DNA from: an uncultured Bacteroidaceae bacterium
GTDB lineage: Bacteria; Bacteroidota; Bacteroidia; Bacteroidales; Bacteroidaceae
Reading direction: 5' to 3'
NCBI GenBank assembly: GCA_964512955.1
Contig: CAZEKX010000001.1
Coordinates: 7,659-71,658, forward strand
DNA: 64,000 nucleotides
Shown: positions 10,948-63,877 of the stretch, one piece after another
Numbering within the stretch: position 1 is the first letter of the stretch
How the letters are laid out: every line of letters starts with the position of its first letter
Notes under the pieces: model-generated
Seen by the model: only the letters and a program-made list of their open reading frames with translations
What the model was told of the DNA's origin: nothing
Database searches by the model: none
Position numbers and translations under genes: made by a program

Positions 10948-10957
10948 CAGTATCATA

Positions 10958-39819: not shown

Positions 39820-39860
39820 CTATTATTAGACTGCAAATGTTGTCTTTGGTTTAAACAACA

Positions 39861-40778
39861 CTATTTTATACCGAAGATTCTGCTCTCATCGGCTTTCTCT
39901 GTTGCCGGAAAAATCTCACGTGCTTCGTCAAGTAATATATTGTCGTCGTTATATCTCGACGAGAAGTGTCCTATGATTAGTTGTCCGACATGTGCGTTGC
40001 GTGCAATCTCTGCCGCTTGACGTGCTGTGGTGTGGAATGTCTCTTTGGCACGTACCTTCTCACTTTCGGCAAATGTGGCTTCGTGATAAAGAAGGTCGAC
40101 ACCTCTTATATATTTGATGTTTTGATGGCAGGGGAGTGTGTCGCTGCAGTAGGCGTAACTGCGCGAAGGGTCGGCTTCACGTGTAAGACGCTCATTGGGA
40201 ATAACCACGCCATCGGGGGTGATAAAGTCGTTCCCATCCTTTAACCCTCTGCGTAAATACTCCGGCACTTTGTAGAACTCCATCATCTCGCCTATAATGT
40301 GTCTTTTCTTTGGCTTTTCGCGAAACAGAAAACCGCAACATGGCAAACGGTGTTCCTGCGGAATTGTCTCCACCGTTATGGCGTTGTCTTCGTATATTAC
40401 GGTGTGTGATGTGGCATCGATGTCGTGGAATATCAGTTTGTATGGCAATCCTTTACAAAAGAAATCGAGTTGCGGTTTCATTATCTGCCTTAGTAATTTA
40501 TCGGCATAGATGTGTAACGGGGCTGTACGTCCCAAGAGCGAAAAACTCGAAATCATGCCTATGAGTCCAAAGCAGTGGTCGCCATGCAGGTGTGAAATGA
40601 ATACGGAACTTATTTGCGAAAACGATATGTGTTGTTTGCGTAGTTGTTGCTGTGTACCCTCGCCGCAATCTATCATGAACCATCGGTTGCCAACTCTTAC
40701 AACTTGCGATGATGCATTGTGGCGTGTGGTGGGTAGTGCCGAGCCGCATCCCAATATCTGTATCTCAAATGGTTCCAT
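39861..40778 (-). CDS. rnz: Ribonuclease Z
   Basis: 305 aa MBL fold with ILGCGSALP, FISHLHGDHCFGL and the C-terminal IGHFSSRY. Confidence 0.9.
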   Translation of the reverse strand: MEPFEIQILGCGSALPTTRHNASSQVVRVGNRWFMIDCGEGTQQQLRKQHISFSQISSVFISHLHGDHCFGLIGMISSFSLLGRTAPLHIYADKLLRQIMKPQLDFFCKGLPYKLIFHDIDATSHTVIYEDNAITVETIPQEHRLPCCGFLFREKPKKRHIIGEMMEFYKVPEYLRRGLKDGNDFITPDGVVIPNERLTREADPSRSYAYCSDTLPCHQNIKYIRGVDLLYHEATFAESEKVRAKETFHTTARQAAEIARNAHVGQLIIGHFSSRYNDDNILLDEAREIFPATEKADESRIFGIK

Positions 40779-40837
40779 GATACCTCTTTTTAATTGTTAT
40801 CGGATGCGAAGATAACGATTTATTGTAAACTTAGAAA

Positions 40838-41521
40838 TTACAAGGATACCATATTTTTCAATAAAAAGAATATGATAGGTACAAGAAGAGATGGTAGCAG
40901 GTTCAATGTCTTGCAATCCTTAATCTCCAGAATACTCAACCCCGATGCGGCAATAAGCACTCCACCGACAATGGAGATTTCTGTTACAAGGTTGTTGGGT
41001 ATGATGTTACCGGCACACATGGTTACAAGATATATGCCTCCTTGCCATATAAACAGTACAGGTGCGGCAAGTATCATTCCTATACCGTATGTTGTGGCAA
41101 GTACAGCCGATGTTACAAGGTCGAGTGTAGCATTGGTGAACAGGTAGGTGTTGTCGTCGTATAATGCACTCATCACCGGGCCTACTATGGATAGTGTACC
41201 AATGCAGTATAATAAAATTCCGGTTGAGAGTCCTTGTGCAAGGTTCGATGCCGAGAAACGGTTTACCATTCTGTTGAATCGGGCATTTATATCTATTACA
41301 GTTCCAATGAGACCACCTATTGCAAGGCTGACAATAAACAGTACCGGGTATTCGCTCTTAGGCAGATTGTTGCTCACAGCATTGAACCCGAGTGCCATTG
41401 CCGCAAGTCCCATTGCGGTGAACATTACCTTTTGGTATCTCTTTTTTATACCTCTTTTTGCATAGTGCCCGACAATACTTCCAATGACAATTGTTACAGT
41501 ATTTACTATTGTTCCTAACAT
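40838..41521 (-). CDS. DUF554-family membrane protein
   Basis: 227 aa polytopic membrane protein starting MLGTIVNTVTIVIGSIVG, typical of DUF554/YdfK-like proteins. Confidence 0.7.
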   Translation of the reverse strand: MLGTIVNTVTIVIGSIVGHYAKRGIKKRYQKVMFTAMGLAAMALGFNAVSNNLPKSEYPVLFIVSLAIGGLIGTVIDINARFNRMVNRFSASNLAQGLSTGILLYCIGTLSIVGPVMSALYDDNTYLFTNATLDLVTSAVLATTYGIGMILAAPVLFIWQGGIYLVTMCAGNIIPNNLVTEISIVGGVLIAASGLSILEIKDCKTLNLLPSLLVPIIFFLLKNMVSL

Positions 41522-41547
41522 CTTTCCTATCTATTCTATTTATAACA

Positions 41548-41575
41548 ATTGGGTGCATCGTACGATGCACCCAAT
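41548..41575 (-). terminator. Hairpin terminator downstream of tnaA
   Basis: attgggtgcatcg / ta / cgatgcacccaat. Confidence 0.7.
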
Positions 41576-41584
41576 GTGATTTAT

Positions 41585-43036
41585 TTACAGACTGTCGCCA
41601 AAATCTTCGCGGAATTTAGCGGCAAGTTTCTCTTGCCAATCACCTATAGGCTCTAAACGGCCAAAGAAGAATCGAAGGACATTGGGCTCCTCAACCCATT
41701 TTAATCCACCAATAAGATGGCGGTTATCGTAGAGCCATTTTACTCTGTCGGCGCAATATTTTATCTGTGAAAGTGTGAATACACGACGAGGGCAGGCAAG
41801 ACGTACCAACTCCATCTCGGCAAAATGCTCTTTGCCATCGGGTTCACGCTGTTCCGACAATGTACCGCGTTCCATACCTCTTATACCACCTGCTATGTAG
41901 AGAGCCGCTGCAAGCGAACCTGCAGGGTATTGACTCTGTGGCATACCTTTGAGGAACTCCATTGCATTTATGTGTGCTCCAAGTCCTCCTGCCGGCAGAA
42001 TCATAGGAATACCGTAGGAGTGAAGTTCCTTAACTAATTGTTCAATGAATATAGGACCTTGGTTTATAATATCCTCGTCCATGGTCTCCAACAAACCTAC
42101 AGCCATAGCCTCCATAGAACGAACCTCCATACCTCCGTATGTGAGGAATCCTTCGTATAAAGGTATAAACTCTTTCATCTTTATAATAAGTTTCTCGTTG
42201 TTGGAAACAATTGCTCCACCACGTGCAAAACCTAATTTACGACTCGAGAAATATATGAGGTCCATTTGGTCGCATAGTGTGCGTGTTATTTCGCGGATAC
42301 TCATGTTCTTGCAAGCCTCTTCTCTTGTTTTGATAAAGTAGAGGTTGTCCTGTAGCAGAGATGCATCGAGTACGGTTAGAATGCCGTTCTTTCTACATAG
42401 TTCTGCTACCTGCAACATGTTTTCGAGAGAAAGCGGTTGACCACCAATGAGGTTTGTACCCGACTCGATACGTACAAACGGAATATGTTCCGCACCAACC
42501 TCTTTTATAAGTGCTTCCAGTGCCGGTATGTCGAAATTGCCTTTGAACGGTTCATTGTTTTGTGGCTCTAAACCTATTGGACGCAATACCTCTACAACTG
42601 TTCCTCCCTTGCGTGTTATGTGTGCCTTTGTGGTGGTGAAATGGTAGTTCATGGGAACTACATCGCCAGGCTTTACAAATGCCTCGGCAAGAATGTTCTC
42701 ACATGCACGTCCTTGGTGTGCAGGCAAGAAAAACTCGGTACCGAAAACCTCTTTTATAACCTTTAAAAGACGGTTGCATGTCTCGGAACCGGCATAGGAG
42801 TCGTCTGCCTGAAACATTGCTGCTACTTGATTGTCCGACATGGCGTTTACTCCCGAATCGGTGAGCATATCCATATATACATCCTTGTTCTGTAACAGGA
42901 ATGTATTATTTCCCGCTTCATTTATCTTTTTTACTCGCTCTTCTACTGTTGGCAAGTACAGTTTTTGTACTACACGCACTTTGTGCATTTCCAAAGGTAC
43001 CTGCTCCTCCGATTTGTAAAATTTAATAGTTGACAT
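41585..43036 (-). CDS. tnaA: Tryptophanase / beta-eliminating lyase family (tryptophan indole-lyase or tyrosine phenol-lyase)
   Basis: 483 aa with DMLTDSGVNAMSDNQ, NYHFTTTKAH and the PLP-lysine region FSSRKLGFARGGA. Substrate preference cannot be decided from sequence by eye. Confidence 0.82.
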   Translation of the reverse strand: MSTIKFYKSEEQVPLEMHKVRVVQKLYLPTVEERVKKINEAGNNTFLLQNKDVYMDMLTDSGVNAMSDNQVAAMFQADDSYAGSETCNRLLKVIKEVFGTEFFLPAHQGRACENILAEAFVKPGDVVPMNYHFTTTKAHITRKGGTVVEVLRPIGLEPQNNEPFKGNFDIPALEALIKEVGAEHIPFVRIESGTNLIGGQPLSLENMLQVAELCRKNGILTVLDASLLQDNLYFIKTREEACKNMSIREITRTLCDQMDLIYFSSRKLGFARGGAIVSNNEKLIIKMKEFIPLYEGFLTYGGMEVRSMEAMAVGLLETMDEDIINQGPIFIEQLVKELHSYGIPMILPAGGLGAHINAMEFLKGMPQSQYPAGSLAAALYIAGGIRGMERGTLSEQREPDGKEHFAEMELVRLACPRRVFTLSQIKYCADRVKWLYDNRHLIGGLKWVEEPNVLRFFFGRLEPIGDWQEKLAAKFREDFGDSL

Positions 43037-43148: not shown

Positions 43149-45164
43149 CTATATACTTGCTTCGCTAACAATTTTAGTCCTTTTATTCCTGTATTTATCT
43201 GTTGTTACGCGAACAGGAAGAGGGTGATTGTAACATACCCAAACAAGTATTGCTGTTGCCATTACACGGTCGTCGTGGTTGCCCTCCACGGCACCCATCT
43301 CTTTGCCGTTCTCCTTTATCTCGTACAGGTCGAGTTCATACGTTGTTTCCAAACAGCGCTCTATATATAATTGGTCGCGCATGGCTTTTATGAGAAAGTT
43401 TATTACCATGGGTTTTGTCGATGAGTTTGTGTGGAACCCCCAGCGACGCGGGTGTCCCTGTCTTATCTCTTGTAGCGATGTACGACTGTACAGGTTGCTG
43501 TATCGTCCAGCAATCTCATTCAGAATATATTCGAAATTGTTGCCTTCGGTTCCTTCGGTCTCCAATGTGTTCGATTCTATAACCAAAAGAGCATTGTCGT
43601 AGGCACGTGCAATCTCCACAGCCTTCCATGCAAGTTTATCGTGTTCTATGTGTCCATGCCAACAGGCTACAATTTCGGGTACTCCTCCGTCGAGCATTGC
43701 AATGCGGTCGGCAACAACAATACATGAGTAGTCGGCTTTCTCCGATAATCCACCGACATCCACCGTTACTATGTAGCGGTCGCGAATATGTTGCTCGCAA
43801 TCGGGCATGAGCCATATCCATAAACTATTCTCGTTACAGTTTTCGCCGGCATGTGCCGGAACAAATCGGCATGTCGGTTCACTCTTGTCTTCATGCAATA
43901 TGCTTTTGTCGTTTGCCACAATGTCGCCTTTGAATATTGGTGGAACACACGTGGTACGTATATTATGTACGTAAGATATCTTGAAGACTCTGCGACCGGT
44001 ACTCTGAAATGCTTCGTTGGCTGTGGATGGAAACTCCGAAAAGAGACGCCACTCATCGGGTAGTTCGCGACGTTTATCCCTGTACCATGCTATAGCCTCT
44101 AATGTTGCACCAAGACGAAACAACTGCTGTTCGTAGTCGTTCATGCTCTCAATGAAACTGTTGTAATGGTTTTTGTCTATCTCTTTACTGTAAAGGTCGA
44201 TACTGTACCAAGGTATGAACACCGGAGTGAAGTTGTTGCGTCCCTCAACTGCCTCTATCCATGTGCGGTGAAAAAAGTTTCCCACTCCTTTTGCTGTCGA
44301 TTCAAGAACCTTCATTGTATATGGTCCGCTTGCAATGGAACCGAAGATGGATTGAACAAGGTCCTCGGGTTTGCGTCCTGCGGTGGACTTCCACAAACCA
44401 ACTTCGGTGAGGTGTGCCATGCTTATATCTTCGCTTCTCAATGAGTCGGGCTTTTGTGATGAACCAAGTGAGTAGCGACTGTTGCTCCAACTTATTACAC
44501 GTGTCTTTGTTATACCTTGATAGGGGCTGGTATAAATCTTTTTCCCCTCGGTTGCCCAACGTGGATAGTTCTTTATGACCTTTGCCAACATACCGGCTAC
44601 TATGGACGACTGTTTTTCTATATCTCCACATATTACACTGTTCCAGTTGTGCCTGTGTACAAGTTGTATCCATAACATATAAAGTTGTGTGAGTGTGGAA
44701 CCTCCCCATTGACGTGCTTTGCACAGAATTATATCTATTGGTCTTTGTTGCATGCGTAACTCCTCCATTGTTTGCAGATATTTACGTTGGGGACGGTTTA
44801 GTGTGAAAGGTATATCGCGTCCTCTACCTTTGTCCGATATTATTGCCATGCTTCTTGCCCAATATTCGAAATCGTGGCATATACGTGTTTTGCAAAACTG
44901 CAACCAAAGTGCAACGACATCGTGCTGAGTGGTTTTCTTACCACTCTCTTGCAGGTATTTCTCAACGCCACATTCTGCAAGTCGAATTATCTTCTCACTG
45001 TTGCACATGGTTATGGGAAGGTACATCTTCTCCAATGGAAAACCCTCTATATTAACCCATTTACGGGCGATGCTCGTTGAGCCCTCGCCCGTAATGGGGT
45101 TATAGTATGCCGAAATAGTCTTTAGACGTTCTATATTTGTACTTATAATCTCTGTTCTGTCCAT
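43149..45164 (-). CDS. terL: Terminase large subunit
   Basis: ATPase Walker A-like ILCKARQWGGSTL and Walker B/coupling ISMAHLTEVG. RNaseH-like nuclease with YIVTVDVGG, LLVIESNT and GNHDDRVMA. The ATG at 45164 is preferred, because the ORF-track start at 45200 is a TTG. Confidence 0.85.
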   Translation of the reverse strand: MDRTEIISTNIERLKTISAYYNPITGEGSTSIARKWVNIEGFPLEKMYLPITMCNSEKIIRLAECGVEKYLQESGKKTTQHDVVALWLQFCKTRICHDFEYWARSMAIISDKGRGRDIPFTLNRPQRKYLQTMEELRMQQRPIDIILCKARQWGGSTLTQLYMLWIQLVHRHNWNSVICGDIEKQSSIVAGMLAKVIKNYPRWATEGKKIYTSPYQGITKTRVISWSNSRYSLGSSQKPDSLRSEDISMAHLTEVGLWKSTAGRKPEDLVQSIFGSIASGPYTMKVLESTAKGVGNFFHRTWIEAVEGRNNFTPVFIPWYSIDLYSKEIDKNHYNSFIESMNDYEQQLFRLGATLEAIAWYRDKRRELPDEWRLFSEFPSTANEAFQSTGRRVFKISYVHNIRTTCVPPIFKGDIVANDKSILHEDKSEPTCRFVPAHAGENCNENSLWIWLMPDCEQHIRDRYIVTVDVGGLSEKADYSCIVVADRIAMLDGGVPEIVACWHGHIEHDKLAWKAVEIARAYDNALLVIESNTLETEGTEGNNFEYILNEIAGRYSNLYSRTSLQEIRQGHPRRWGFHTNSSTKPMVINFLIKAMRDQLYIERCLETTYELDLYEIKENGKEMGAVEGNHDDRVMATAILVWVCYNHPLPVRVTTDKYRNKRTKIVSEASI

Positions 45165-45186
45165 GTTTTGCGGTTTTACCTCTGTT

Positions 45187-45669
45187 TTATATACCTGCAA
45201 GATTGGTTGAACGACGTCTCACTTTCCTTTTGTTACAGAACATGGCGAATATGTCTTTTACTTTGCTTAACCAGATGCTGTGCGTTTGATAATATTCACC
45301 GGTTGATGCTGTTTGACGCAGATGCAACCAACTGTAAATTATTTCATTTACCAAGTAGTCTTTTATCCTTTGGCGTAGTATTGCAGTAAGTTCGTCCCTC
45401 TTCTCATTTTCATTCTCATCTTCGAATACAATGCTTACATACTCGTCGTTAACATTGAACCCTACCGATGCAAAACGCATGGCAATGCTTGCCGCAAGTT
45501 CGTTTACTGCTTTTTGCAAGAATATACCGAACAACTCTTTTTCGTCGGTGGAACTTTGAACAGTGTCGGCATCTGTATCCTTGCGTTTAATGGCTTCGCC
45601 CATGTAGTATGTCTTTAAATCTACCTCTTGTTGTAGTTCTTCACGCTTTATTAAAACAATTCTTTCCAT
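45187..45669 (-). CDS. Phage-island small protein, paralog family member 1 (possible head-completion/connector protein)
   Basis: 160 aa. It shares YY.GEA.K, I..Y(L/I)V......W(L/M) and a basic C-terminus with 45672-46184 and 54461-54877. Confidence 0.4.
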   Translation of the reverse strand: MERIVLIKREELQQEVDLKTYYMGEAIKRKDTDADTVQSSTDEKELFGIFLQKAVNELAASIAMRFASVGFNVNDEYVSIVFEDENENEKRDELTAILRQRIKDYLVNEIIYSWLHLRQTASTGEYYQTHSIWLSKVKDIFAMFCNKRKVRRRSTNLAGI

Positions 45670-45671
45670 TT

Positions 45672-46184
45672 CTACATGTTTATGAGTTTATCGTGGGAGT
45701 TGCTTTGTTGTATCTGTGGACGTTTACGCAGTGTAAACATCTCCCTTAAGTTGAAAATAATCTGTTGTACTTCACTTGCCGCAATCGCTGCCTCGTCGGG
45801 CTTGTGTTGTAACATCCATAATTGCAGTGTACGCATTACGATGTAGTTCTCTATCATGGTTTCTAACTGTGGCACTGCTTCGTCGGGGTAGTTCTGCGGT
45901 ATATCTACCAAGAATACTGTATTGTTTGTATCTTCAGTTGCATCGTTGCTTGCAGTTTCTCTACTGCATAGAGCAAAATACCTTGACAACATTCTTGAAA
46001 CTTCGCCGGTAGGGGTATTGATGTGGTCGATGATTTGTGTTTTGTCGTCGCTCGAGGCTTGTATGTTTGCTGCTGCTTTTTCCGGGAATCCCACCTGCTT
46101 ACGTGCCTCTCCTGTGTAGTAGCAATGTGTGTATATGCGTTGCAACACATTGTTAATGTTTAAAACTATTCTTCTCTTTTTCAT
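45672..46184 (-). CDS. Phage-island small protein, paralog family member 2
   Basis: 170 aa. IPQNYPDEAVPQLETMIENYIVMRTLQLWMLQHKPDEAA...LRKRPQ aligns with MPVNWKNSQLTNLCMQCIAYVKQSLVARWLDFVKPDSAM...LRKKPD of 54461-54877. Confidence 0.4.
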   Translation of the reverse strand: MKKRRIVLNINNVLQRIYTHCYYTGEARKQVGFPEKAAANIQASSDDKTQIIDHINTPTGEVSRMLSRYFALCSRETASNDATEDTNNTVFLVDIPQNYPDEAVPQLETMIENYIVMRTLQLWMLQHKPDEAAIAASEVQQIIFNLREMFTLRKRPQIQQSNSHDKLINM

Positions 46185-46234
46185 TATATATATTTATATG
46201 TAATTTAAAATTCAAAAACTTCTTAAACTGTTGC

Positions 46235-46651
46235 TCAGACAACTGCAATCTTTCTCTCTTTAATAGATTTATAAATAAGTCCGCGGAATGTACCCTCGTC
46301 GATGTAAAAAGATGGTGCAGGCTCTTCTATTATACTACCTAAAATTGTGTAATTGTCGCATACATCTTTAATTCTTTTCCTGTAGCGTTCGTATATCTCT
46401 TTGTACATTGATATCTTATTGCTGTTTGCTATTGGCAGACGCTTTTTTCTCATTAAGAGCGATATGAAACGACGAGCATTCTCGTAACTTATGTAGAACC
46501 GGGGTGCGGTAGATTTTACAGCCTCATGTATCACTTCGCTAATTGTTGTCTTAGGGTCTGCCTTGCGCATCTTCTTAAGGGTGTCGAAGAAAATTTCTAG
46601 AACAGCCTGCTTACGCATTTCGCTAACTTTTTTCTCTTCAATCTTTGTCAT
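46235..46651 (-). CDS. Hypothetical basic helical protein (possible small terminase or DNA-binding regulator)
   Basis: 138 aa and the first gene of the terL-containing operon. It is Lys/Arg-rich and helical, with no motif I can name. Confidence 0.25.
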   Translation of the reverse strand: MTKIEEKKVSEMRKQAVLEIFFDTLKKMRKADPKTTISEVIHEAVKSTAPRFYISYENARRFISLLMRKKRLPIANSNKISMYKEIYERYRKRIKDVCDNYTILGSIIEEPAPSFYIDEGTFRGLIYKSIKERKIAVV

Positions 46652-46811
46652 AATAGGTTTTGTTTTTTCTTACAAAAATATAGCCAAAAATGGCTGAATG
46701 GTTGCGGATTTATGATAATCTTTTCAACAGTTTTTGAATTTGATGTAATAATTCTGCAACCTTAAACTTTGCTCATGCCCCCATCTTTGCCAACGAAAAA
46801 ACAAAATAATC

Positions 46812-47600
46812 ATGAATAAGAATTTTACAAACCAAGGACAAGAGGAGATGCAGACAGTGCAGACACCGTCTAGCGAATTTCCTCAACAGAGTAGTGTGGG
46901 ACAGGTTCCCGTAAATCCTTATGAGGATTTCGAAACCGAATTGCAAGAGATGTTTGGTGAGGGCTTCAGACTCGATGATGAGTCTTCGCAGGAGTTGTTA
47001 TTGAGACATCTTAGAATTAACAGAGAACAGAACGATAAGTTGGCAGATGCCTTGGAACGCGACCCGCGTCTTGCACAAATGTTGTCGGATGTGGTAGAGG
47101 GAAAGAGAAATGCCCATGCCTCTATGGCACGTTACTTTGGACGCACTCTTATGGATATGGATGAGGACAGCCCCGAATACGAAGAGATGATGATGGCAGA
47201 CGAGGAGCGCCGCGAAGAGGTCTTTCGACTTGCCGAAAATCGTCGTGAGTATGAGGCTAATTTAGAGATAAGCAGGCCCATAATAGAAACATTCTGCCGC
47301 GACAGAGGGTATGACCCTTCCGACTTTATGGAGATGGTGTGGGAGAAGGTTGTATTCCCAATACTTTCGGGTAAATATTCCTATGAGGTGTGTACTGCAC
47401 TCGACCACTCGCTAACCTATGAACAGGATGTGGAAGATGCTTTTGCTGCCGGTGATGTCAAAGGACGTAACACAAATATTCAACGAATGAAAGAGGATAT
47501 CGGCGATGGATTGCCAAAAGGACTTAGCAGTGTGGCACCCGATACCGCTCCTGTAAAACGTAGAACAAACAGTCTTATAGAGGCTGCTCTGAAAGCATAA
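46812..47600 (+). CDS. Putative scaffolding protein
   Basis: 262 aa, strongly acidic and helical (EEMMMADEERREEVFRLAENRREYEANLE), immediately upstream of the capsid gene. Confidence 0.4.
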   Translation: MNKNFTNQGQEEMQTVQTPSSEFPQQSSVGQVPVNPYEDFETELQEMFGEGFRLDDESSQELLLRHLRINREQNDKLADALERDPRLAQMLSDVVEGKRNAHASMARYFGRTLMDMDEDSPEYEEMMMADEERREEVFRLAENRREYEANLEISRPIIETFCRDRGYDPSDFMEMVWEKVVFPILSGKYSYEVCTALDHSLTYEQDVEDAFAAGDVKGRNTNIQRMKEDIGDGLPKGLSSVAPDTAPVKRRTNSLIEAALKA

Positions 47601-47636
47601 CTTACAATATTTATTAATTATTTTAATCCTTTTTTT

Positions 47637-49265
47637 ATGAAGAAATTTTTGAATTTTTTGAAAGAAAATCCGTTGTTCGTTTTTCTTTCGTTGGTATCTG
47701 TAGCACTTCTCTTGTCGGGTGGTGAAGAGGGTGGCTTAATGTTGGCAACAGTGAATGTTATTGCTCCCGGCACACCGCGTGCATCGCGTGGAATAGCAGG
47801 TTTGCCATCCCATGGCTATGGCGATGCGACAACTGTTTCAAATGCATCGGAACTTGGTAATGATTTTCTGGAACCCGATTTTGATGAGGATATTGTTAAA
47901 ATTGCAAGCGACGAGAGTGTTATCGATACTATAAAAAGACGTGTCGACAGACAGGTTGCGGTTAACTCCTTTGAGGTGAACCATTACATGATTGACGAAA
48001 AACGATCCAAGGCTTACACCAATCAAACATGCTCCGGAGCAGGTTCTGCACGAGGAGAGATTCCTTTCTCTACCGTTGGTGAAAGAAAAATATTCCAGGA
48101 GTATTTTACTGCAATATGTAAAGGCGTGAATGGATACGACCCTACAGGCCAGATAGAACTTCCCGGTGTCGACCTCATGATATTCTTTGTTGGAAAAAAT
48201 CCTACAACAGAGGCTCCTATCGCTATGGCTGTCAACGGACCTAAGATAAATCCTACCGATGACTATTGTGTCCTTCCTGAAATTCCTGCAGGTACCGAGG
48301 TAATATTACTCTCGTCGGCAGCCTATGAGACACAGAAATTTATTGCTCCAAGTACTGTCGTTCCGGTTCCCGAACGTGTATATCTGCAAAAACAACTTTG
48401 TAATAATATTGTCAGCGACTATTTTAAAGCACAAAGAAAGAAGGTTGAGTTTGGCGAGGCACAGATTGCCGAAGCGGTTGTACGTCAGTTCCGTTTGGAG
48501 AGTTGTCGTACAGCGTGGGTGGGACAGCCCGGTAAATTCAAAGTACAGGCTATGGATGCCTCTATGGGTTACCAGTGGGACTACTTCTCCAAAGGTTTGC
48601 GTTGGCAGTTTAAACGTCAGTACGACCTCTCTTCTACAATAACATTTGCTGATTTAATAAACCTGTCAATGGTGAAGTTTACCGGATATAATTGCAGCAA
48701 GAAGGCTGTATGGCTCTTAGGACGTCAATTGCTGAACGATATACAAAAAATAGATATCACTTTGCATAAAAACATATCTATGTCGGGTAGCAGTGTGTTT
48801 GGATTGAAATGTACCCGCATACAAACAGTGTTCGGTGAAATTAATCTTGTACACGATCCCACACTCGATGCTCTTGGCTACTCAAACTGTGGAGGTCTTA
48901 TAGATGAGAACGGCTTGGTACGTTACTTTATGAAAAATGAAGATACCAAAACAGAAAATGTCGATGGCGAGGAGGCTAAGCGTCAGGTGGTAATGACTAT
49001 CGACTGTTTGTGTCTTAAAGGATACAGCCATATATGGGTTAACGGCTCGGCAGAAAAGAGTGATATTCCCGGTGCATCGCATGTAACAAGTTCGGCTACA
49101 TTACCCGAATCGCCAAATGCGAACGATGTGGTGGTTCTTACTGCCGATGTCAATCACTCGGTAAACGGAGTGTCGCAGTTGTGGTTCCCTGCTGGCAGTG
49201 TGGTAACATATAACGGCAATACATGGGTGGAGTATACAGGCGAAATACTTACTGTTGGTGAATAA
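47637..49265 (+). CDS. Major capsid protein (HK97-fold, SU10/DUF5309-like)
   Basis: The pattern FLEPDFDEDIVKIASDESVIDTIKRRVDRQVAVNSFEVNHYMIDE matches the N-arm/E-loop signature of this capsid family (i..i.p..tP....i......v.s...eW.e.d). Size, position after the scaffold gene and a hairpin after the gene all fit. An alternative start at 47739 (MLATVNV) is possible. Confidence 0.6.
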   Translation: MKKFLNFLKENPLFVFLSLVSVALLLSGGEEGGLMLATVNVIAPGTPRASRGIAGLPSHGYGDATTVSNASELGNDFLEPDFDEDIVKIASDESVIDTIKRRVDRQVAVNSFEVNHYMIDEKRSKAYTNQTCSGAGSARGEIPFSTVGERKIFQEYFTAICKGVNGYDPTGQIELPGVDLMIFFVGKNPTTEAPIAMAVNGPKINPTDDYCVLPEIPAGTEVILLSSAAYETQKFIAPSTVVPVPERVYLQKQLCNNIVSDYFKAQRKKVEFGEAQIAEAVVRQFRLESCRTAWVGQPGKFKVQAMDASMGYQWDYFSKGLRWQFKRQYDLSSTITFADLINLSMVKFTGYNCSKKAVWLLGRQLLNDIQKIDITLHKNISMSGSSVFGLKCTRIQTVFGEINLVHDPTLDALGYSNCGGLIDENGLVRYFMKNEDTKTENVDGEEAKRQVVMTIDCLCLKGYSHIWVNGSAEKSDIPGASHVTSSATLPESPNANDVVVLTADVNHSVNGVSQLWFPAGSVVTYNGNTWVEYTGEILTVGE

Positions 49266-49279
49266 TATATAATTCGCAT

Positions 49280-49301
49280 GGTGTGCCGTTGTCGGCACAC
49301 C
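49280..49301 (+). terminator. GC-rich hairpin after the capsid gene (partial terminator or RNA-stabilising element)
   Basis: ggtgtgccg / ttgt / cggcacacc. There is no strong T-run, so read-through into downstream genes is likely. Confidence 0.45.
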
Positions 49302-49319
49302 TGCATAAATTAAAATATC

Positions 49320-49742
49320 ATGAAAAAAATAGTTACTTACGAAATACACGGACAGGTTGAGAGAAACAGTTATTTCCGTGTGGGAAAGGCTTTGATACGT
49401 ATTGAGTTCAAGGGTGGTTCAATAAATTCGGCAGAATGTATACCGGCACGATTTATTACCGATAACCCTCTGATGCAAAAGGCAATTGAGGAAAGTGCCG
49501 CATTCCGTTGCGGCGAAATAAAGAAAGGTAAAGTGGATATTATTGAGGATGTAAACGAGTGTGCTGCTTCATCTGAAAACGCAACAGAGGTTACAGTTTT
49601 CTCCGATGTTAAGAATATGCAGCAGGCACGTGCTGTTTTAATGGCTGAACCTTTCTTGTGCCAATTGTCGGAGTTACAAACAAAAGCGGCTGTTAAGGCT
49701 ATGGCCGAGGAGAAAGGTATTACATTTCCCAACTGGTTATGA
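49320..49742 (+). CDS. Hypothetical virion-associated protein (beta-rich N-terminal domain plus a HeH/SAP-like C-terminal helix pair)
   Basis: 140 aa. The C-terminus VKNMQQARAVLMAE...LQTKAAVKAMAEEKGITFPNW resembles short HeH-type modules common in phage head proteins. Confidence 0.3.
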   Translation: MKKIVTYEIHGQVERNSYFRVGKALIRIEFKGGSINSAECIPARFITDNPLMQKAIEESAAFRCGEIKKGKVDIIEDVNECAASSENATEVTVFSDVKNMQQARAVLMAEPFLCQLSELQTKAAVKAMAEEKGITFPNWL

Positions 49743-50392
49743 TAACAACAGAGAATTTAAAGGCAAAGGTGCGCTTTTTGCTAAATGAGGCGAATGATGA
49801 CAGCGATGTAACGTTACTTGCAGCAGATACACGAAAAATAGACGATTACATAGAGTCGTTGCTTCCCGAAGCAGTGCTTTTTGTACAGATGAACAGTGAA
49901 CGTTGCGGTGTTAATCCTAAAAGTATAACCATTGCCAAAGAGAAAATAACCACTGCCTCCGATGGCAGTGGATATTTTCCTCTGCCCGACGATTTTGTAC
50001 GTCTTGTGCAGTTAAACATGACAGGATGGAAACGTCCGTGCAAAATACTCTATCCCGACAATTCGTCTATGGCATTGGCGCAAGGTAACTTTTATACAAG
50101 AGCCGGGTGGTGCAAACCTGTTGCTGTTCTGGGTTATACTGCCGATGGCATGAAAGCACTATATTTCTACTCTTTGCCTATTGGGGTATCGCCTAATGTT
50201 GATAGTTTTATATATGAAGCACTGTATGTCCCCGATAATGGTTTATGTGGCAACGATGATGTCCTGCACGAGGCTGTAGCGTACAGGTGTGCAGCACTTG
50301 TCTTTAATGTGTTTGATAAACACGATAGCGCCGCTTCAATGCTATCTATTGCGGCATCGTTGTGTAATGGTAATAGAAACAATGAAAAATAG
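49739..50392 (+). CDS. Hypothetical protein (possible gp6-like head-tail adaptor)
   Basis: 217 aa with an ATGA start/stop overlap with the upstream gene. The N-terminus LKAKVRFLLNEANDDSDVTLL...IDDYIESLLPEAV resembles adaptor N-termini. Confidence 0.3.
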   Translation: MITTENLKAKVRFLLNEANDDSDVTLLAADTRKIDDYIESLLPEAVLFVQMNSERCGVNPKSITIAKEKITTASDGSGYFPLPDDFVRLVQLNMTGWKRPCKILYPDNSSMALAQGNFYTRAGWCKPVAVLGYTADGMKALYFYSLPIGVSPNVDSFIYEALYVPDNGLCGNDDVLHEAVAYRCAALVFNVFDKHDSAASMLSIAASLCNGNRNNEK

Positions 50393-50397
50393 GAATT

Positions 50398-50679
50398 ATG
50401 GCTGTTAAGAACTTGACAATATCCAAGAATGGAATTTTCTGGGAGACAGAACCTCTGCAATGTGTAGGTGGCGATATAAGGGTTAGAGTACATAAAAACG
50501 GACTCTATCCGGTGGAGATCTTAGTGAGTATAGATGGCGAAGAGGAGTATTTGCGACACGATGACTTTGGTTTCGACGAATATAAATGCGAGATAACAAT
50601 AGAAGGAGTTATGCCGGAGCAGTTCATTATGTTGCGCTCACGTAGCGAACTGACATTGGTAAAAACATTGGAAATGTAG
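50398..50679 (+). CDS. Hypothetical small beta-rich protein
   Basis: 93 aa intact ORF, tightly spaced within the operon. Confidence 0.3.
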   Translation: MAVKNLTISKNGIFWETEPLQCVGGDIRVRVHKNGLYPVEILVSIDGEEEYLRHDDFGFDEYKCEITIEGVMPEQFIMLRSRSELTLVKTLEM

Positions 50680-50686
50680 AGCCGGT

Positions 50687-51157
50687 ATGGACGAAGTGAA
50701 ATTTTTTGTGGCATCGTTCTTTGCAAATTTTGCAAGTATACTGTTCCCGATAAAGAACGATATATTCGGGCTTATAATGCTATTTACTCTGAACTTTGTA
50801 ATAGGTTTGCTTGCCGACCTTAGCAACAGACGAGAATGGAGTTTTAAAAAAGCATTTCGTCTATTCAGAGATGCGGCAATATACTTTGTATTGGTAGCCT
50901 CTATCTATCTGCTAGGACATATAAAAGGTGAAGATGCTACCGCAGTGCAGTGTGTTTCGTTCCTTATATATATTGCAATATATTTCTATGGAACCAATAT
51001 ACTGCGTAATGCACGCATGATAACCCAACACGGAAGTACTTTATTTCGTATTCTCGATTTTCTTTACTATCTCCTTAGTCTGCGTATTGTGGAACGGTTC
51101 AGTTATTTGAAAGGCTATGTCAATGAATATGAGAAAGAGAATAAAAGCATACTTTAG
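50687..51157 (+). CDS. Holin-like membrane protein
   Basis: 156 aa with about 4 TM helices. The segment FTLNFVIGLLADLSNRREWSFKKAFRLFRD resembles phage holin family 4-type proteins. It lies directly upstream of a spanin-like gene. Confidence 0.45.
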   Translation: MDEVKFFVASFFANFASILFPIKNDIFGLIMLFTLNFVIGLLADLSNRREWSFKKAFRLFRDAAIYFVLVASIYLLGHIKGEDATAVQCVSFLIYIAIYFYGTNILRNARMITQHGSTLFRILDFLYYLLSLRIVERFSYLKGYVNEYEKENKSIL

Positions 51158-51539
51158 TCTGTTACTTTTTATATCTGTTGCGTCGTGTGCTGTAACACGT
51201 TCGGGTGAAAGTACGATACGTACACTGTATAATAGTTCCGACAAGCATACTCGCGACAGTATTTTTATTCGCGACAGTATAATTGTGTATACAAAATCGG
51301 ATACGGTATATAAGGATCATTGGCACACTCTCTATCGCGACCGTATACAAACAGATACACTTCTCATAACCGATACGCTCTATTGTGAAAAAACTATTGA
51401 AGAACCTGTGAAATGTAATGAGGATGTTTCTGCAAAAAGTGTATTCCGCTTTGCCTTTTTGATTTTTTTGTTCATTGTTCTGTGGAAGTGTGGTCTGCTC
51501 GATGTGATTGCAAAACTGTTAAAACGTCTTGTTAATTGA
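51129..51539 (+). CDS. Unimolecular-spanin-like protein (N-terminal lipoprotein signal plus C-terminal TM anchor)
   Basis: MRKRIKAYFSLLLFISVASC contains a lipobox (VASC). The C-terminal TM is FRFAFLIFLFIVLWKCGLL. At 136 aa it has the same architecture as T1 gp11-type u-spanins. It overlaps the holin 3' end, and alternative ATGs lie at 51117 and 51123. Confidence 0.4.
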   Translation: MRKRIKAYFSLLLFISVASCAVTRSGESTIRTLYNSSDKHTRDSIFIRDSIIVYTKSDTVYKDHWHTLYRDRIQTDTLLITDTLYCEKTIEEPVKCNEDVSAKSVFRFAFLIFLFIVLWKCGLLDVIAKLLKRLVN

Positions 51540-51559
51540 TTTTATTAATAATATATATT

Positions 51560-54454
51560 ATGCAAAAGAGTTTTTCTTTTCGTGGCATTGTACGTAATAC
51601 CGATAATTTGTTTGCTCGCGAGGGTGAATGTATGGAACTTGTAAATATGAGAATCTGTAATGGCTCACTGGAACCAATTGCTCCACCTTTTGAGGTGAAA
51701 AGTTTGCCATGTTCCTATTCTGCTGTATATTTCCACAGTGAAACTTCGGTATATATGTGTATAACCAAAGATAAAGGAATGGTGCATCTCTACGATATAT
51801 CTTTCTCTCCATTGTCTTCGGCTGTATCTCTGTATGGTATCCCTCTGCTCTCTACCGAAGCGGTAGATGTTTGTCGTATAGAATTTTCGGGTAATATAGC
51901 CTGTTTACTTACATCCAAAAGCACTTTATATGCAATCTATGACAATGGTGTATATAAGTGGCTTGGTGCGTCCCCTAAAATGCCGACATTGACGTTTACC
52001 GTCGATTCCATTATTCATAAAGTTACTACTGACGATGAATATTATCAGGGGTTTACACGCGATAACGAAAAAGTTGCTCTCTACTGGAATAATGCATCAA
52101 AAGGTTATTTCGATGAGTGCGTGGCAAAACTTAATGAACAGGGATATTATGTCGATAGGGCACTTTTTCGTTTTGCTTTCAGGCTCTTCGATGGTAGTTA
52201 TGCCTATTATTCTCCGGTTTATTATGTAGAGGACAAGAATAGCATAAACGGCTTGTCGCGCGATAAAGGTAATTTCGTATTTACAAGGGTGAATGAATCG
52301 GATACAATAGGATTATCGAAATACAATGTAATGGTGCAGGGTTTTAAACCAACATTTCATTTCTCGGACTTCAATTTAAAAGAGTGGGAGAATATAATTG
52401 TATCGGTCGACCTCTTTACTACAGGTTCCATAATGGGGCATAAGATTGTAAATAACGGTACAGAAGTATCTTCTCGTGTCGATAATGTCAACACATCTTC
52501 GTCCTATGGATTCGATTATTACGACAATAAAACAAATCTGGAAATATTTAACGACACCGCTACTGCATCATCCTTTTATAAGATTGCCGAATATAAATTA
52601 AATGGGGTGTTGGTCGATAATGAAGAGAATGTCTCATCCGAAAAACTCGTATTGTCGGACTCTTTGCCTGCCGATAGTGGAAATCTCAACGACTGTTCTG
52701 CCCAATACAGTTATATGTTCAACGGTTGTCTTCACTTGGCATCTTTACGCGAGAAACTATTTAAAGGGTACAATGGCGATTGCTTTCTCCCATCGTCACT
52801 CACTCCTAAATATATAACGGCAACTGTATATACAGAACTGAATACCACAAATGGAACATCTGTTGTAAAAAGGGAATATGATGGAGATTTTCTCATTGGA
52901 GAAACCGATGCAGGTTATTGCATATCGCCTTACATATCCTATCCCGATATGCGTGCTGTTAAGATGACATTTTCGCTATTGATAGATGGGACGTATTACA
53001 ATAAAACTTTTTCACTAATACAGCATAAAATGCTGAATATGGCATACTATCTTAATACAAAAGATAGAGGGTTGACACTTACGGTAGATATAACAAATTC
53101 TTCTGTAACATCGGTGCATGTATACTACGAGGAAATTTTAAAATCCTATTTCTCATATAAAACAGGAAGTTACAATATTGTTTATTCAACCTCTACCGGA
53201 TGGATGTATGGCGACAAGGTTTTTACCTTAAATACTAAGGAGGGTACGGGAGAACGCTATCCGGCTATAACGTGGAGAGGAACACCAACCGACGGTGATG
53301 TCATTGTTATATCCATAGCCCAAAGTGCCGACGACGACAAGAAAGGTACAATAGAGAATATTGCAATAGATTCAACTTGGGAAAGCAGTACATCGAAAGT
53401 CGATATCTCGGAGATGAATACGGTTGAGGTTCGTAAAAATATACTCAAGGTCTCTTCTGTCGATAATCCTTTTTTGTTTCCTGCTATACAAACCTATGCT
53501 CCCACAAATGAAGAAATAATAGGTGTGTGCAGTAATACCGTCGCTCTTTCACAAGGACAGTTTGGACAACATCCGCTCTACATCTTTTGCAGTAATGGAA
53601 TATGGGCAATGTCGGTCGATACATCGGGTACACTTGCTTATAATGGTTCTTATCCAATGTCGCGCGAGGTTTGTACAAATGCCAAATCTATACGTGGTAT
53701 CGATGCCGGAGTGATATTTGCAACAGCAAAAGGTGTTATGTTAATGCATGGTGGCAGCATAAAACAATTATCGGCTTCAATGGATGCCGATTTTCATCCA
53801 TTGAAGTATCTATCTTCGACAAACATCTTCAGCAGAGTGGCTGCAATTGTCTCATTAAATAATTTCTCGAACAATGAGACATTTTACAGTTATTTACAAC
53901 AGGCAACCATAGGTTTCAATTACCCCAAGCGTGAAATTATAGTCTCTAATTCGGGATACCCGTATAGTTATCTCTGTTCTTTGGAAAACGGAGAGTGGAG
54001 CAAAATATCATATAATTTCGATTTTGTATTGAATAGTTATCCCAACCTATGGTGCATAAAAAGTGATCTTAACAAAACTATTATACTTACTCCAAACAAT
54101 TATGTTTCTAGTGAAAACTCGGTGTTGCTGATATCGCGACCTTTATTGTGGGGTGGTAAACTATATAAAAGAGTGCTGCAGATGATGCTGCATGCTACTG
54201 TTAAGCCTGCAAAAGGCGATAATACTTTCAATGGATTGGCTTGTTACCTGTTATGCAGTAACGATGGAGTGAACTTTAAACTTGTTACAGGCAATGAACG
54301 TAGAGTGGAGTTTTGCGACATGGTATTCCCTTATATACCAACTCAATCTTATCGATATTTTGCCATAGTACTTGTGGGAAATATATCTACCGAAAGTAAA
54401 ATTAATGCTGTTGAGATGTATATCGATTCGGCATGGAATAATCGTTTACGTTAA
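51560..54454 (+). CDS. Large (964 aa) protein of unknown function; portal or tail/receptor-binding candidate
   Basis: Longest ORF of the island, with no motif I can assign. The ATG at 51560 is preferred, because 51536 is a TTG. Confidence 0.3.
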   Translation: MQKSFSFRGIVRNTDNLFAREGECMELVNMRICNGSLEPIAPPFEVKSLPCSYSAVYFHSETSVYMCITKDKGMVHLYDISFSPLSSAVSLYGIPLLSTEAVDVCRIEFSGNIACLLTSKSTLYAIYDNGVYKWLGASPKMPTLTFTVDSIIHKVTTDDEYYQGFTRDNEKVALYWNNASKGYFDECVAKLNEQGYYVDRALFRFAFRLFDGSYAYYSPVYYVEDKNSINGLSRDKGNFVFTRVNESDTIGLSKYNVMVQGFKPTFHFSDFNLKEWENIIVSVDLFTTGSIMGHKIVNNGTEVSSRVDNVNTSSSYGFDYYDNKTNLEIFNDTATASSFYKIAEYKLNGVLVDNEENVSSEKLVLSDSLPADSGNLNDCSAQYSYMFNGCLHLASLREKLFKGYNGDCFLPSSLTPKYITATVYTELNTTNGTSVVKREYDGDFLIGETDAGYCISPYISYPDMRAVKMTFSLLIDGTYYNKTFSLIQHKMLNMAYYLNTKDRGLTLTVDITNSSVTSVHVYYEEILKSYFSYKTGSYNIVYSTSTGWMYGDKVFTLNTKEGTGERYPAITWRGTPTDGDVIVISIAQSADDDKKGTIENIAIDSTWESSTSKVDISEMNTVEVRKNILKVSSVDNPFLFPAIQTYAPTNEEIIGVCSNTVALSQGQFGQHPLYIFCSNGIWAMSVDTSGTLAYNGSYPMSREVCTNAKSIRGIDAGVIFATAKGVMLMHGGSIKQLSASMDADFHPLKYLSSTNIFSRVAAIVSLNNFSNNETFYSYLQQATIGFNYPKREIIVSNSGYPYSYLCSLENGEWSKISYNFDFVLNSYPNLWCIKSDLNKTIILTPNNYVSSENSVLLISRPLLWGGKLYKRVLQMMLHATVKPAKGDNTFNGLACYLLCSNDGVNFKLVTGNERRVEFCDMVFPYIPTQSYRYFAIVLVGNISTESKINAVEMYIDSAWNNRLR

Positions 54455-54460
54455 AAGAAT

Positions 54461-54877
54461 ATGGAAATAACAATAAACAAACAGGATGCAATAGATAATT
54501 TGCACAGGGTAACAGGAAATTTAGGGCTTAAACTTGGTGCTCCGGAATTGGTGGCATCTACCGAAGAGGATACAGAGAGAATAACTCCGTTATGGAATGG
54601 TGCAACAACTGAATTGTTACAGTTATTACAGCCTTATGCCAATATGAACTATAACACTGTGGGTGTTACATACTCTTTACAAATGCCTGTCAATTGGAAA
54701 AACTCTCAATTAACCAATTTGTGTATGCAGTGTATTGCCTATGTAAAGCAGTCGTTGGTGGCGCGTTGGCTCGACTTTGTGAAACCCGACAGTGCAATGC
54801 TCTACAGAACGCTTAACCGGGATATAGCCGATGCAGTCTTGCATATCCTTGCTCTGAGAAAGAAACCCGATAGATAA
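54461..54877 (+). CDS. Phage-island small protein, paralog family member 3
   Basis: 138 aa. See the alignment with 45672-46184. Its stop codon sits inside the shared terminator hairpin. Confidence 0.4.
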   Translation: MEITINKQDAIDNLHRVTGNLGLKLGAPELVASTEEDTERITPLWNGATTELLQLLQPYANMNYNTVGVTYSLQMPVNWKNSQLTNLCMQCIAYVKQSLVARWLDFVKPDSAMLYRTLNRDIADAVLHILALRKKPDR

Positions 54878-54905
54878 AAAGCCGCATAAGCGGCTTTTTA
54901 TCTAT
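54870..54905. terminator. Bidirectional hairpin terminator shared by the phage island and the DUF1573 gene
   Basis: tagataaaaagccgc / ataa / gcggctttttatcta, a 15-bp perfect stem. Both convergent stop codons are embedded in the arms. Confidence 0.8.
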
Positions 54906-62265: not shown

Positions 62266-62288
62266 TTGATAAAACAACATCCTATAAT

Positions 62289-62332
62289 ACATAAATAGGG
62301 GTTTAAGTTTAAACTTAAACCCCTATTTATGT
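62289..62332. terminator. Bidirectional hairpin terminator (44-bp perfect palindrome) between pgeF and the hydrogenase gene
   Basis: acataaataggggtttaagttt | aaacttaaacccctatttatgt. Confidence 0.75.
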
Positions 62333-62342
62333 ATCTTGTATC

Positions 62343-63782: not shown

Positions 63783-63847
63783 AGTAGTTCTTTTTGAAGT
63801 TACGTTTAAATTTTGCGGTAAAAATAGTAAAAAAGAGTCAATTTTTG

Positions 63848-63855: not shown

Positions 63856-63877
63856 CAATAATCTTTCTTCATGTGGT

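Follow-up and report, generated by a model that had tools for sequence, protein, structure and literature searches.

A candidate gene-transfer-agent-like particle system, split over two loci, in uncultured gut Bacteroidaceae

What keeps a compact set of phage head, packaging and lysis genes in place among the housekeeping genes of a bacterium, when no gene for integration or replication accompanies it? This question is raised by an 11.7-kb island in DNA of an uncultured Bacteroidaceae bacterium (GenBank assembly GCA_964512955.1, contig CAZEKX010000001.1, positions 7,659 to 71,658), a stretch of 64,000 nucleotides that is referred to below as the window. Based on the analysis of the island and its relatives, we consider it likely that it represents locus 1 of a domesticated, chromosomally fixed, two-locus particle system derived from a podovirus, in other words a 'viriform' resembling gene transfer agents (GTAs), of uncultured gut Bacteroidaceae. 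All parts for a DNA-filled podovirus-like particle are encoded across the two loci: capsid, scaffold, portal, large terminase (TerL), adaptor, tail nozzle and a polyvalent protein of virion type. This complete set of parts, together with the constraint on its genes, the lack of excision and replication functions and the common regulatory signals, makes up the signature of a GTA-like viriform, and particle production and DNA transfer are what such a gene content would suggest. Traits expected of GTAs are seen directly in chromosomal structural and packaging genes without integration, excision and replication genes, and in multiple loci with a common promoter motif.

A podovirus structural module in a host-like setting

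An earlier note, made from the sequence alone, had described thirteen intact, tightly packed open reading frames (ORFs) that form two divergent operons, a minus-strand one from 46651 to 43149 and a plus-strand one from 46812 to 54877. These coordinates were reproduced, as were a 2-nt gap between ORFs at 45669/45672, an ATGA overlap at 49739-49742 and an overlap of the holin-like and spanin-like genes at 51117-51157. Housekeeping genes lie directly on both flanks. The borders are also where the note had placed them: on the left, about 110 nt separate the TerL stop codon (43149) from the start of tnaA downstream (43036), and on the right a terminator hairpin covers the stop codons of both the last island gene and the convergent DUF1573 gene. 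Direct or att-like repeats were not found around the island, and the sole tRNA gene of the window, at 32146, is about 11 kb away. The composition of the island is indistinguishable from that of the host, both in GC content (0.409 versus 0.404 in the rest of the window) and in GC content at third codon positions (0.404 versus 0.406). Scans with Pfam, PHROGs and PADLOC revealed no integrase, replication gene, repressor, protease or endolysin among the genes of locus 1, and no meaningful match to the known defence families modelled in PADLOC.

The list of missing functions given in the note thus held in these respects; however, its statement that there are no tail genes was wrong. The 217-aa product is an SU10-type adaptor, scoring above the Pfam cut-off for SU10_adaptor (28.9 bits against 27; E 1.9e-6), and the 972-aa product was recognised as a podovirus tail nozzle by a structure search of the kind that the note had proposed. 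Its AlphaFold2 model, built from a 37-sequence alignment, has a mean predicted local distance difference test score (pLDDT) of 85.6 and a predicted template modelling score of 0.76. Foldseek matches of this model (E 5e-17 to 1e-9) include the portal-tail complex of cyanophage A4 (5e-17), the virion and tail of SU10 (2e-15; 7z4b/7z47), the muzzle of crAss001 (2e-15) and the tail complexes of T7 and P22, while a PDB sequence-profile search gave nothing significant. The possibility that the 972-aa protein is a portal was rejected, since the model consists almost entirely of beta-strands and its matches are to nozzles. With adaptor and nozzle, the island thus has the core genes of a short tail. 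As for the major capsid protein (MCP), the match of the window protein to SU10_MCP (PF17236) is weak (E 9e-4, below the cut-off), and the same family is matched by 9 of the 14 aligned MCP family members, the best with E 2.5e-33. A PDB sequence-profile search with the MCP returned nothing significant, and its single-sequence AlphaFold2 model reached a pLDDT of only 32. Together with the P22-type portal of locus 2 (see below), the MCP family, the adaptor and the nozzle fold constitute an SU10-like podovirus structural module, all of whose components are matched.

Searching phage databases with TerL and MCP, another check proposed in the note, led to homologs in complete phages with genomes of 55-68 kb. 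In these true phage relatives the portal and nozzle genes are contiguous. They include the temperate Bacteroides podoviruses BF1-TP2, BS-TP4 and BKO1-TP3 (PQ571263, PQ571277 and PQ571269) and the uncultured phages that we label L085 (IMG/VR UViG_3300022661_000338), L100, L125, L126 and L131. They share with the chromosomal element homologous TerL (39-65% identity), MCP (24-66%), adaptor, nozzle, portal, holin-like and gp58-like proteins, as well as the divergent orientation of the TerL operon and the scaffold-MCP operon. They differ from it by an integrase, a repressor, replication and recombination genes, an endolysin and further large virion proteins. For instance, the 68-kb BF1-TP2 encodes an integrase, a repressor, Erf, RusA, a replication initiator, an endolysin and a giant protein of 3633 aa, and its portal gene directly follows TerL. 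In L085, whose MCP and TerL are 66% and 63% identical to those of the window, the gene order is giant protein, portal, nozzle. Homologs in locus 1 were found for only 7 of the 27 BF1-TP2 proteins tested, and locus 2 adds homologs of a further two, namely the portal and, in part, the giant protein. Compared with the phages, the element has kept about 20 genes and is fixed beside ligA. The island is not a complete temperate phage of the BF1-TP2/L085 type, because the rest of the window, as far as its large ORFs were scanned, consists of ordinary chromosomal and housekeeping genes.

The conservation of the island is best seen from a scan of one genome per GTDB species, in which 80 of 86 matches were kept. 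These are 80 loci in 79 species-representative genomes, all from uncultured Bacteroidaceae or Bacteroidales and mostly of ruminant hindgut origin. All relatives except L080, which is a prophage, share an island of 11-12 kb with the same gene order; in a ten-species clade (MCP clade 1) locus 1 measures 8 kb and lacks the holin-like, spanin-like and nozzle genes, its other genes being intact. The closest relative, L074 (GCA_017522785.1), has an MCP 92% identical to that of the window and the same tnaA-to-relA context, and a contig from sequencing run SRR14307664 carries island genes 97-100% identical to those of the window. Wherever contigs reach, the genes are full length (TerL in 63/63, MCP in 80/80 and nozzle in 62/63 loci). 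Synonymous sites are saturated among the loci (proportion of synonymous differences, pS, 0.71-0.78), and the ratio of nonsynonymous to synonymous substitution rates (dN/dS), taken from unsaturated pairs, ranges from 0.054 for MCP to 0.43 for the spanin-like gene, with 0.026 for tnaA as a reference. Locus 1 is therefore under purifying selection and has been maintained long-term in the host lineage, in agreement with the argument of the note that the intact, compact state speaks against simple decay.

The second locus, the repressor module and shared regulatory signals

Searches with the portals of BF1-TP2 and of the closer L085 yielded no portal, whether in the window or across the 80 loci. 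The L085 portal led to a protein, P0326 (IKJ31_00985), encoded in the same metagenome-assembled genome (MAG), GCA_017522785.1, as island L074. There it belongs to locus 2, which lies on a separate contig between a hexapeptide-transferase gene and ligA-dapA and consists of an 81-aa gene on the opposite strand followed by genes for proteins of 196 aa, 181 aa and 1492 aa (the giant protein), the portal and a 140-aa protein. The portal is of P22 type (666 aa; PF16510, E 4.5e-43). The giant protein has an LPD23 'polyvalent protein' domain and corresponds by homology to the central part of its counterpart in the phages; across copies of the element its size is 1.1-1.7 thousand amino acids, compared with 3.6-4.2 thousand in the podovirus relatives. 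No integrase, excisionase, primase, replication gene or endolysin was found in locus 2 with Pfam and PHROGs. The earlier label of a head, packaging and lysis island covers only half of the system, since the portal and the polyvalent protein sit in a second locus and most relatives have in addition an S24 repressor.

A metagenome scan yielded about 26 further copies of locus 2, with portals 71-83% identical to P0326 and a constant gene order. Directly downstream are ligA-dapA in every copy whose contig reaches that far. Phage portals form a separate group (58-61% identity to P0326), in which nozzle, TerL and MCP genes follow. The locus-2 copies are intact, with dN/dS of 0.055 for the portal, 0.12 for the giant protein and 0.03 for ligA. 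Pairwise identities of portal and LigA fall within the same range and are correlated (r = 0.84; Mantel 0/5000), which indicates, with the caveat that the two genes are physically linked, that locus 2 descended along with the chromosome. Since LigA identity ranges over 72-100% across the carriers, the constraint spans roughly genus-to-family-level divergence. Run SRR14307664, which yields the near-identical island, also yields a contig with the same arrangement and a portal 89% identical to P0326; the organism of the window therefore very probably has locus 2 as well, judging by this match.

How the loci are arranged could be followed in the 61 species with enough sequence to the right of locus 1. 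In 39 of them the nozzle operon is followed by a divergent gene pair, c0 (about 125 aa) and c1 (about 210 aa). The c1 product combines a helix-turn-helix domain with an S24 peptidase domain (GTSMEP serine motif) and matches PHROGs of CI-like repressors. A complete F1Fo ATP synthase operon comes next in 27 of the 39 species; judged from the locus-1 side, this operon thus splits the loci in at least 27 species. The whole arrangement is found on one contig (NODE_112_length_102673, or NODE_112), which carries locus 1, c0, c1, nine atp genes, a DUF4369 gene, locus 2 and ligA; its inter-locus stretch corresponds to L102 15096-22146 and L098 1-3351. In three species locus 2 follows c1 directly, and in one further genome only a hexapeptide-transferase gene lies between the loci. 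In the remaining 22 species, including the lineage of the window, locus 1 is located away from c0-c1. In this lineage locus 1 and locus 2 are found on separate contigs; the two lie in separate chromosomal regions, and the repressor module is absent from the window. As c1 co-varies with MCP (rho 0.68) and not with AtpD (0.16), it belongs to the element. The most economical explanation is that the element was once contiguous, spanning about 21 kb next to ligA, and was later split by host rearrangements. With the atp operon between them, or on separate contigs, the loci cannot move as a unit, yet both halves are still intact.

Supporting the idea of one system are the promoters. A motif common to both loci, GCAACC-N~22-TTTCTTTGC, precedes the plus-strand operon of the island in 59 of the 70 orthologous locus-1 regions, is also located upstream of the locus-2 operon and, inverted, upstream of the 81-aa gene. 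Members of the regulon would be recognised by the pattern TGTCATTnCAGCAACC-N~22-TTTCTTTTGC for the promoter and AGCCA-N4-5-TGGCT for the operator. The 15-mer ATAATTCTGCAACCT is identical in locus 1 of the window and in locus 2 from run SRR14307664. The packaging operon has its own GCAACC, followed by a 14-nt operator-like palindrome, AGCCAAAAATGGCT, and by a putative -7 box, TATTTTTG, which fits the -7 consensus of Bacteroides, TAnnTTTG. A single copy of the palindrome is present in the 64-kb window (0.04 expected), and 33 of the 70 orthologous regions contain it (against 0.6% of shuffles). In 32 of 40 relatives it is present in two or three copies between c0 and c1, a layout like that of repressor operators. 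It is likely that the palindrome of the window is a c1 operator overlapping the promoter of the packaging operon. By the same token, c1 would repress the packaging operon and c0, and a factor recognising GCAACC, either a sigma factor or an activator, would co-activate all four promoters; candidates for it are the 138-aa, 81-aa and c0 proteins. The window contains two matches to the GCAACC motif, against 0.34 expected. The other one (GCAACC-N16-28-YTTTGC, 63931-63963, minus strand) coincides with the 5' end of the long ORF 62343-63974, whose product looks from its sequence like an Fe-S/hydrogenase protein, and may be due to chance, as two matches were also obtained in 3 of 100 shuffles.

Inheritance, comparable systems and rival explanations

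Locus 1 has not been inherited in a purely vertical manner. Between L018 and L075, an 8.5-kb segment from TerL to the spanin-like gene is 97-99% identical at the DNA level, whereas the atp operons are 91-95% identical and the left flanks are unrelated. The nozzle genes of the two are only 60-69% identical, and uniformly so along the gene, which corresponds to replacement of a whole-gene allele. This contrast shows that segments of the element have passed from one species to another, with the nozzle acting in the manner of a specificity module that can be swapped. Close host pairs carry close elements; overall co-divergence with AtpD is weak and we make no claim of strict vertical inheritance of locus 1. 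The left junction is formed by the TerL stop codon and the terminator, beyond which lie variable islands that account for the diversity of left flanks; this junction has the appearance of a hotspot for insertions. The stretch immediately after the TerL stop is occupied in L018 by a tyrosine integrase with radical-SAM/SPASM genes (867-5285) and in L075 by genes for a KAP-family NTPase and an S41-like peptidase (56-5074), along with an integrase seemingly reduced to its first few codons. The integrase beside TerL in L018, L030, L032 and L042 was rejected as the element's own, being restricted to few species and followed by unrelated cargo in L018, which was examined.

If the system works as its gene content suggests, stress, probably SOS-like, would inactivate the S24 repressor, and the four GCAACC-type promoters would fire. 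Scaffold, MCP and portal would then build procapsids, which TerL, perhaps with the 138-aa protein of the packaging operon as small terminase, would fill by headful. The packaged DNA would have to be chromosomal, because the element cannot excise or replicate. Adaptor and nozzle would close the portal, the giant protein would be loaded for delivery, the holin-like and spanin-like proteins would help particle release, and the particles would deliver their DNA to related cells.

Several observations weigh against a GTA-like viriform. The system is known from its genes, and its expression, particles and packaged DNA are predictions. Very probable as it is, the presence of locus 2 in the organism is derived from the MAG of a relative and a same-run contig, not from the genome of the window itself. 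The repressor is phage-type rather than a host regulator, and its module is absent from the window. Inheritance is not purely vertical: a segment of locus 1 is closer between two species than the adjacent atp operon is, and the correlation of MCP with host AtpD is weak (Spearman 0.09-0.29; Mantel p about 0.13). The lysis-type genes comprise only the holin-like and spanin-like ones, and Pfam and PHROGs scans of either locus found neither an endolysin nor a recognisable fibre or receptor-binding protein. Finally, MCP and scaffold (542 and 262 aa) show no head reduction relative to L085 (557 and 273 aa) and BF1-TP2 (478 and 283 aa). With a capsid and scaffold as long as in phages, the criterion that the capacity of the particle is smaller than the gene cluster may not hold.

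Comparison with described systems helps to place the element. GTAs of the RcGTA type are domesticated head-tail clusters without integration and replication genes, with extra distant loci and long-term purifying selection, all of which are paralleled here. RcGTA resembles a siphovirus with a reduced head and is under the control of its host (CtrA, quorum sensing), whereas the element resembles a podovirus, gives no sign of a reduced head and comes with an S24 repressor of phage type. PBSX of Bacillus subtilis, a killing particle with a contractile tail, resembles the element in being defective, chromosomally fixed, repressor-controlled and phage-like; it is SOS-inducible and packages host DNA. 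It differs by its contractile tail and by its single contiguous cluster of about 28 kb. Capsid-forming phage-inducible chromosomal islands (PICIs) and similar satellites resemble the element in their small size and in having capsid and packaging proteins of their own. They also possess an integrase, att sites and replication modules and rely on borrowed tails; the element lacks the first three and has its own adaptor and nozzle. The closest described analogue is FpGTA of Faecalibacterium, an integrase-less, chromosomal, podovirus-like GTA that is near-ubiquitous in this gut genus and consists of two loci, one of 10.5 kb (TerL, portal, scaffold, MCP) and one of 5.5 kb (tail, lysis) (PMC12946183). 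Its particles and packaged DNA of 8.5 kb have been demonstrated experimentally (PMC12946183). The likeness is that of a chromosomal, integrase-less gene set of podovirus type in two loci. In FpGTA, however, the portal belongs to the head locus and tail and lysis genes to the second, while here the portal and the giant protein are set apart; FpGTA also comes from another phylum, no sequence relationship to it was seen, though no test aimed at one was made, and its particles are known, in contrast to those of the element.

Among the three readings offered by the earlier note, a GTA-like or otherwise domesticated system fits the gene order, intactness, selection, lack of integrase and replication genes and co-divergence of the portal with ligA, whereas a capsid-forming satellite is not supported. 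Such a satellite, akin to capsid-forming PICIs and spread in particles made with the help of a BF1-TP2/L085-type phage, would account for the CI-like repressor with its divergent small gene, for the missing endolysin and fibres, for the mosaic segment that is more similar than the atp operons, and for the related prophage that co-occurs with an island in one MAG. Yet att sites and genes for an integrase, excisionase, primase or other replication proteins are missing from both loci, locus 2 keeps one place next to ligA and diverges in step with it, and movement as a unit is impossible in most genomes, where the atp operon splits the loci or they lie on different contigs. Considering also the own tail core and portal and the lack of degraded copies in about 80 species, we regard a satellite as distinctly improbable. 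Still less credible, to the point of being negligible, is an inert, decaying prophage remnant. It would explain that only about one-third of the gene content of related phages is present and that essential functions such as an endolysin were not found; however, genes that are full length in 60-80 species with dN/dS of 0.05-0.43, despite saturated synonymous sites (pS about 0.7-0.78), rule out decay for practical purposes, and the promoter and operator motifs are conserved as well.

A more serious rival is a domesticated gene set kept for another purpose, such as PBSX-like killing by particles that package DNA and do not transfer it, or a block on superinfection, for example by interference with the assembly of the related 55-68 kb phages. 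The prophage mentioned above provides some support for this, as do the fast turnover of surface-facing parts (nozzle, adaptor and giant protein) and the PBSX precedent (cited in PMC12946183). Nevertheless, the full packaging machinery (TerL, portal, capsid, scaffold and polyvalent protein) is strongly constrained, and killing or exclusion alone would not require all of it; a match to known defence families is also lacking. We therefore consider another purpose unlikely, if better founded than a satellite, and retain the GTA-like viriform as the preferred reading. The prophage in question (L080/L100/L101; JAFYRW010000048.1 and a near-identical ENA scaffold) is a real member of the related phage lineage and shares its MAG with island L082. 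Encoded in it are a 4176-aa giant protein, portal, nozzle, a KilA-N/ANT antirepressor and TerL; its nozzle is represented by two ORFs (683 and 270 aa) in the NCBI copy and by a single 948-aa ORF in the ENA copy.

Bacteroidales dominate mammalian guts and exchange genes at a high rate, the known routes being conjugative elements and transducing phages. In the literature searched, no GTA or comparable domesticated particle system is described for Bacteroidota. For capsid-packaged gut DNA, GTA-like packaging has been reported in Bacillota only, and lateral transduction in Bacteroides (PMC12946183). The island would thus be the first candidate GTA of the phylum, and a particle system in about 80 species offers a testable candidate for capsid-mediated gene flow in Bacteroidales with a recognisable regulon of common promoter motif, operator and S24 repressor. 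If the two loci still work as one unit, they would also exemplify a 55-68 kb temperate podovirus pared to about 20 genes and split by host rearrangement. It is tempting to speculate further, although we hold this only as a tentative and rather doubtful proposal, that this is the first GTA of Bacteroidota: clade-wide, repressor-controlled, with podovirus-like heads of near-full size that package chromosomal DNA in situ and drive inter-species recombination around the loci. If this is the case, the packaged DNA could include the genes of the system itself and the ATP synthase operon where the loci lie close together.

Genes and signals of the island

The features of the island are compiled in Table 1.

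Table 1. Genes and regulatory signals of locus 1 in window coordinates, with the number of loci in which a gene is intact or found and its dN/dS
Feature	Position	Strand	Match or description	Loci	dN/dS
TerL (large terminase)	43149..45200	-	phrog_2, E 1e-19; 39.5% full-length identity to BF1-TP2 gp60	intact in 63/63	0.088
160-aa protein	45187..45669	-	phrog_19255 family, weak PHROG match		0.20
170-aa protein	45672..46184	-	phrog_19255, E 9e-10		0.33
138-aa protein, first gene of packaging operon	46235..46651	-	phrog_27246; BF1-TP2 gp58 homolog		
Divergent control region	46652..46811		holds the minus-operon -7 box, palindrome, GGTTGC and plus-operon motif		
Putative -7 box TATTTTTG	46673-46680	-	packaging operon		
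Operator-like palindrome AGCCAAAAATGGCT	46682-46695		14 nt, between GCAACC and -7 box of packaging operon		
Packaging-operon GCAACC	46700-46705	-	GGTTGC on plus strand		
Plus-operon promoter motif	46756-46790	+	GCAACC-N22-TCTTTGC, about 21 nt before the scaffold ATG		
Acidic scaffold-like protein, 262 aa	46812..47600	+	phrog_22323; directly upstream of MCP as in BF1-TP2 (gp57) and L085	intact in 77/78	0.19
MCP, SU10/DUF5309 type, 542 aa	47637..49265	+	BF1-TP2 gp56 homolog	intact in 80/80	0.054
140-aa conserved protein	49320..49742	+	between MCP and adaptor; 44% identical to same-position ORF in L085	intact in 80/80	0.17
Head-to-tail adaptor, 217 aa	49739..50392	+	SU10_adaptor (PF24175); BF1-TP2 gp54 homolog		
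93-aa protein	50398..50679	+		found in 56	0.22
Holin-like membrane protein	50687..51157	+	Phage_holin_4_1, E 6e-4, under curated cut-off; BF1-TP2 gp48 homolog		0.11
Unimolecular-spanin-like protein, 140 aa	51117..51539	+	N-terminal lipoprotein signal and C-terminal transmembrane segment		0.43
Podovirus tail nozzle, 972 aa	51536..54454	+	fold match; full-length homolog of BF1-TP2 gp33	intact in 62/63	
138-aa third phrog_19255 paralog	54461..54877	+	weak PHROG matches	found in 36	
Bidirectional terminator hairpin	54870-54905		16-bp stem, T-runs on both sides; covers stops of last island gene and convergent DUF1573 gene		

The true start of TerL is probably ATG 45164 rather than TTG 45200, and that of the nozzle ATG 51560, as M9 is nearly invariant in its alignment (A1). 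The 160-aa and 170-aa proteins and the 138-aa protein at the end of the island align together (alignment A4) and represent three paralogs, for which no PDB or Pfam match was found. The 170-aa protein evolves fast, with 25-50% identity between species. The 138-aa paralog is, by matches of proteins from relatives, a homolog of BF1-TP2 gp34, which adjoins the nozzle gene. The other 138-aa protein, encoded by the first gene of the packaging operon, is also homologous to the ORF directly upstream of TerL in L085 and had no significant PDB match in a sequence-profile search; its gene position makes it a candidate small terminase or regulator.

In the plus-strand operon, the 262-aa protein presumably acts as the scaffold. 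The 140-aa protein after MCP, which has no family match in Pfam or PHROGs, may serve in head completion or decoration. The 93-aa gene is absent from part of clade 3 or undetected there by tblastn. The phage homolog of the holin-like protein, gp48, adjoins the endolysin gene of BF1-TP2. The spanin-like protein, whose gene has the highest dN/dS of the island, has no family match, and sequence features point to its putative role.

The genes flanking the island are tnaA, a DUF554 gene, an MBL-fold gene and an extracytoplasmic function (ECF) sigma factor on the left, and DUF1573, relA/spoT and DUF4301 on the right. Comparison of the window (39256-43036) with L021, L031 and L055 showed that in some species the tnaA and DUF554 cassette, with a further gene cluster (c26), lies between the MBL-fold gene and the island; in others this cassette is missing and the MBL-fold gene abuts the island. 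A weak adaptor-like match elsewhere in the window, at 62125-62451, is inside unrelated host ORFs and was dismissed.

Upstream of locus 2, several genomes carry the gene for a 170-aa hexapeptide-repeat transferase with weak PHROG matches (L091 3413-3925, L093 3891-4403 and L135 3151-3663; also L116 and L122), which may be either a gene of the host or cargo that belongs to the element. In L127 an insertion of about 3.5 kb (7868-11363) separates the 140-aa gene from ligA, and the portal match is interrupted or extended compared with other copies. The members of MCP clade 1 are L059, L061, L062, L064, L067, L068 and L070-L073; their nozzle may follow the portal, as in phages. Nozzle cluster P0076 was rejected as its source, because it belongs to an ordinary human-gut phage. 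This phage (L133/L134), with a distantly related nozzle, carries in its late region a GH108 endolysin and a reverse transcriptase gene (RVT_1) that may be part of a diversity-generating retroelement. In one species (L069 4990-6680), the divergent promoter region of the island contains an insertion with three genes, whose products are an ECF-type sigma factor of 175 aa and two membrane proteins, one of 262 aa and one of 121 aa, the latter being a possible anti-sigma factor.

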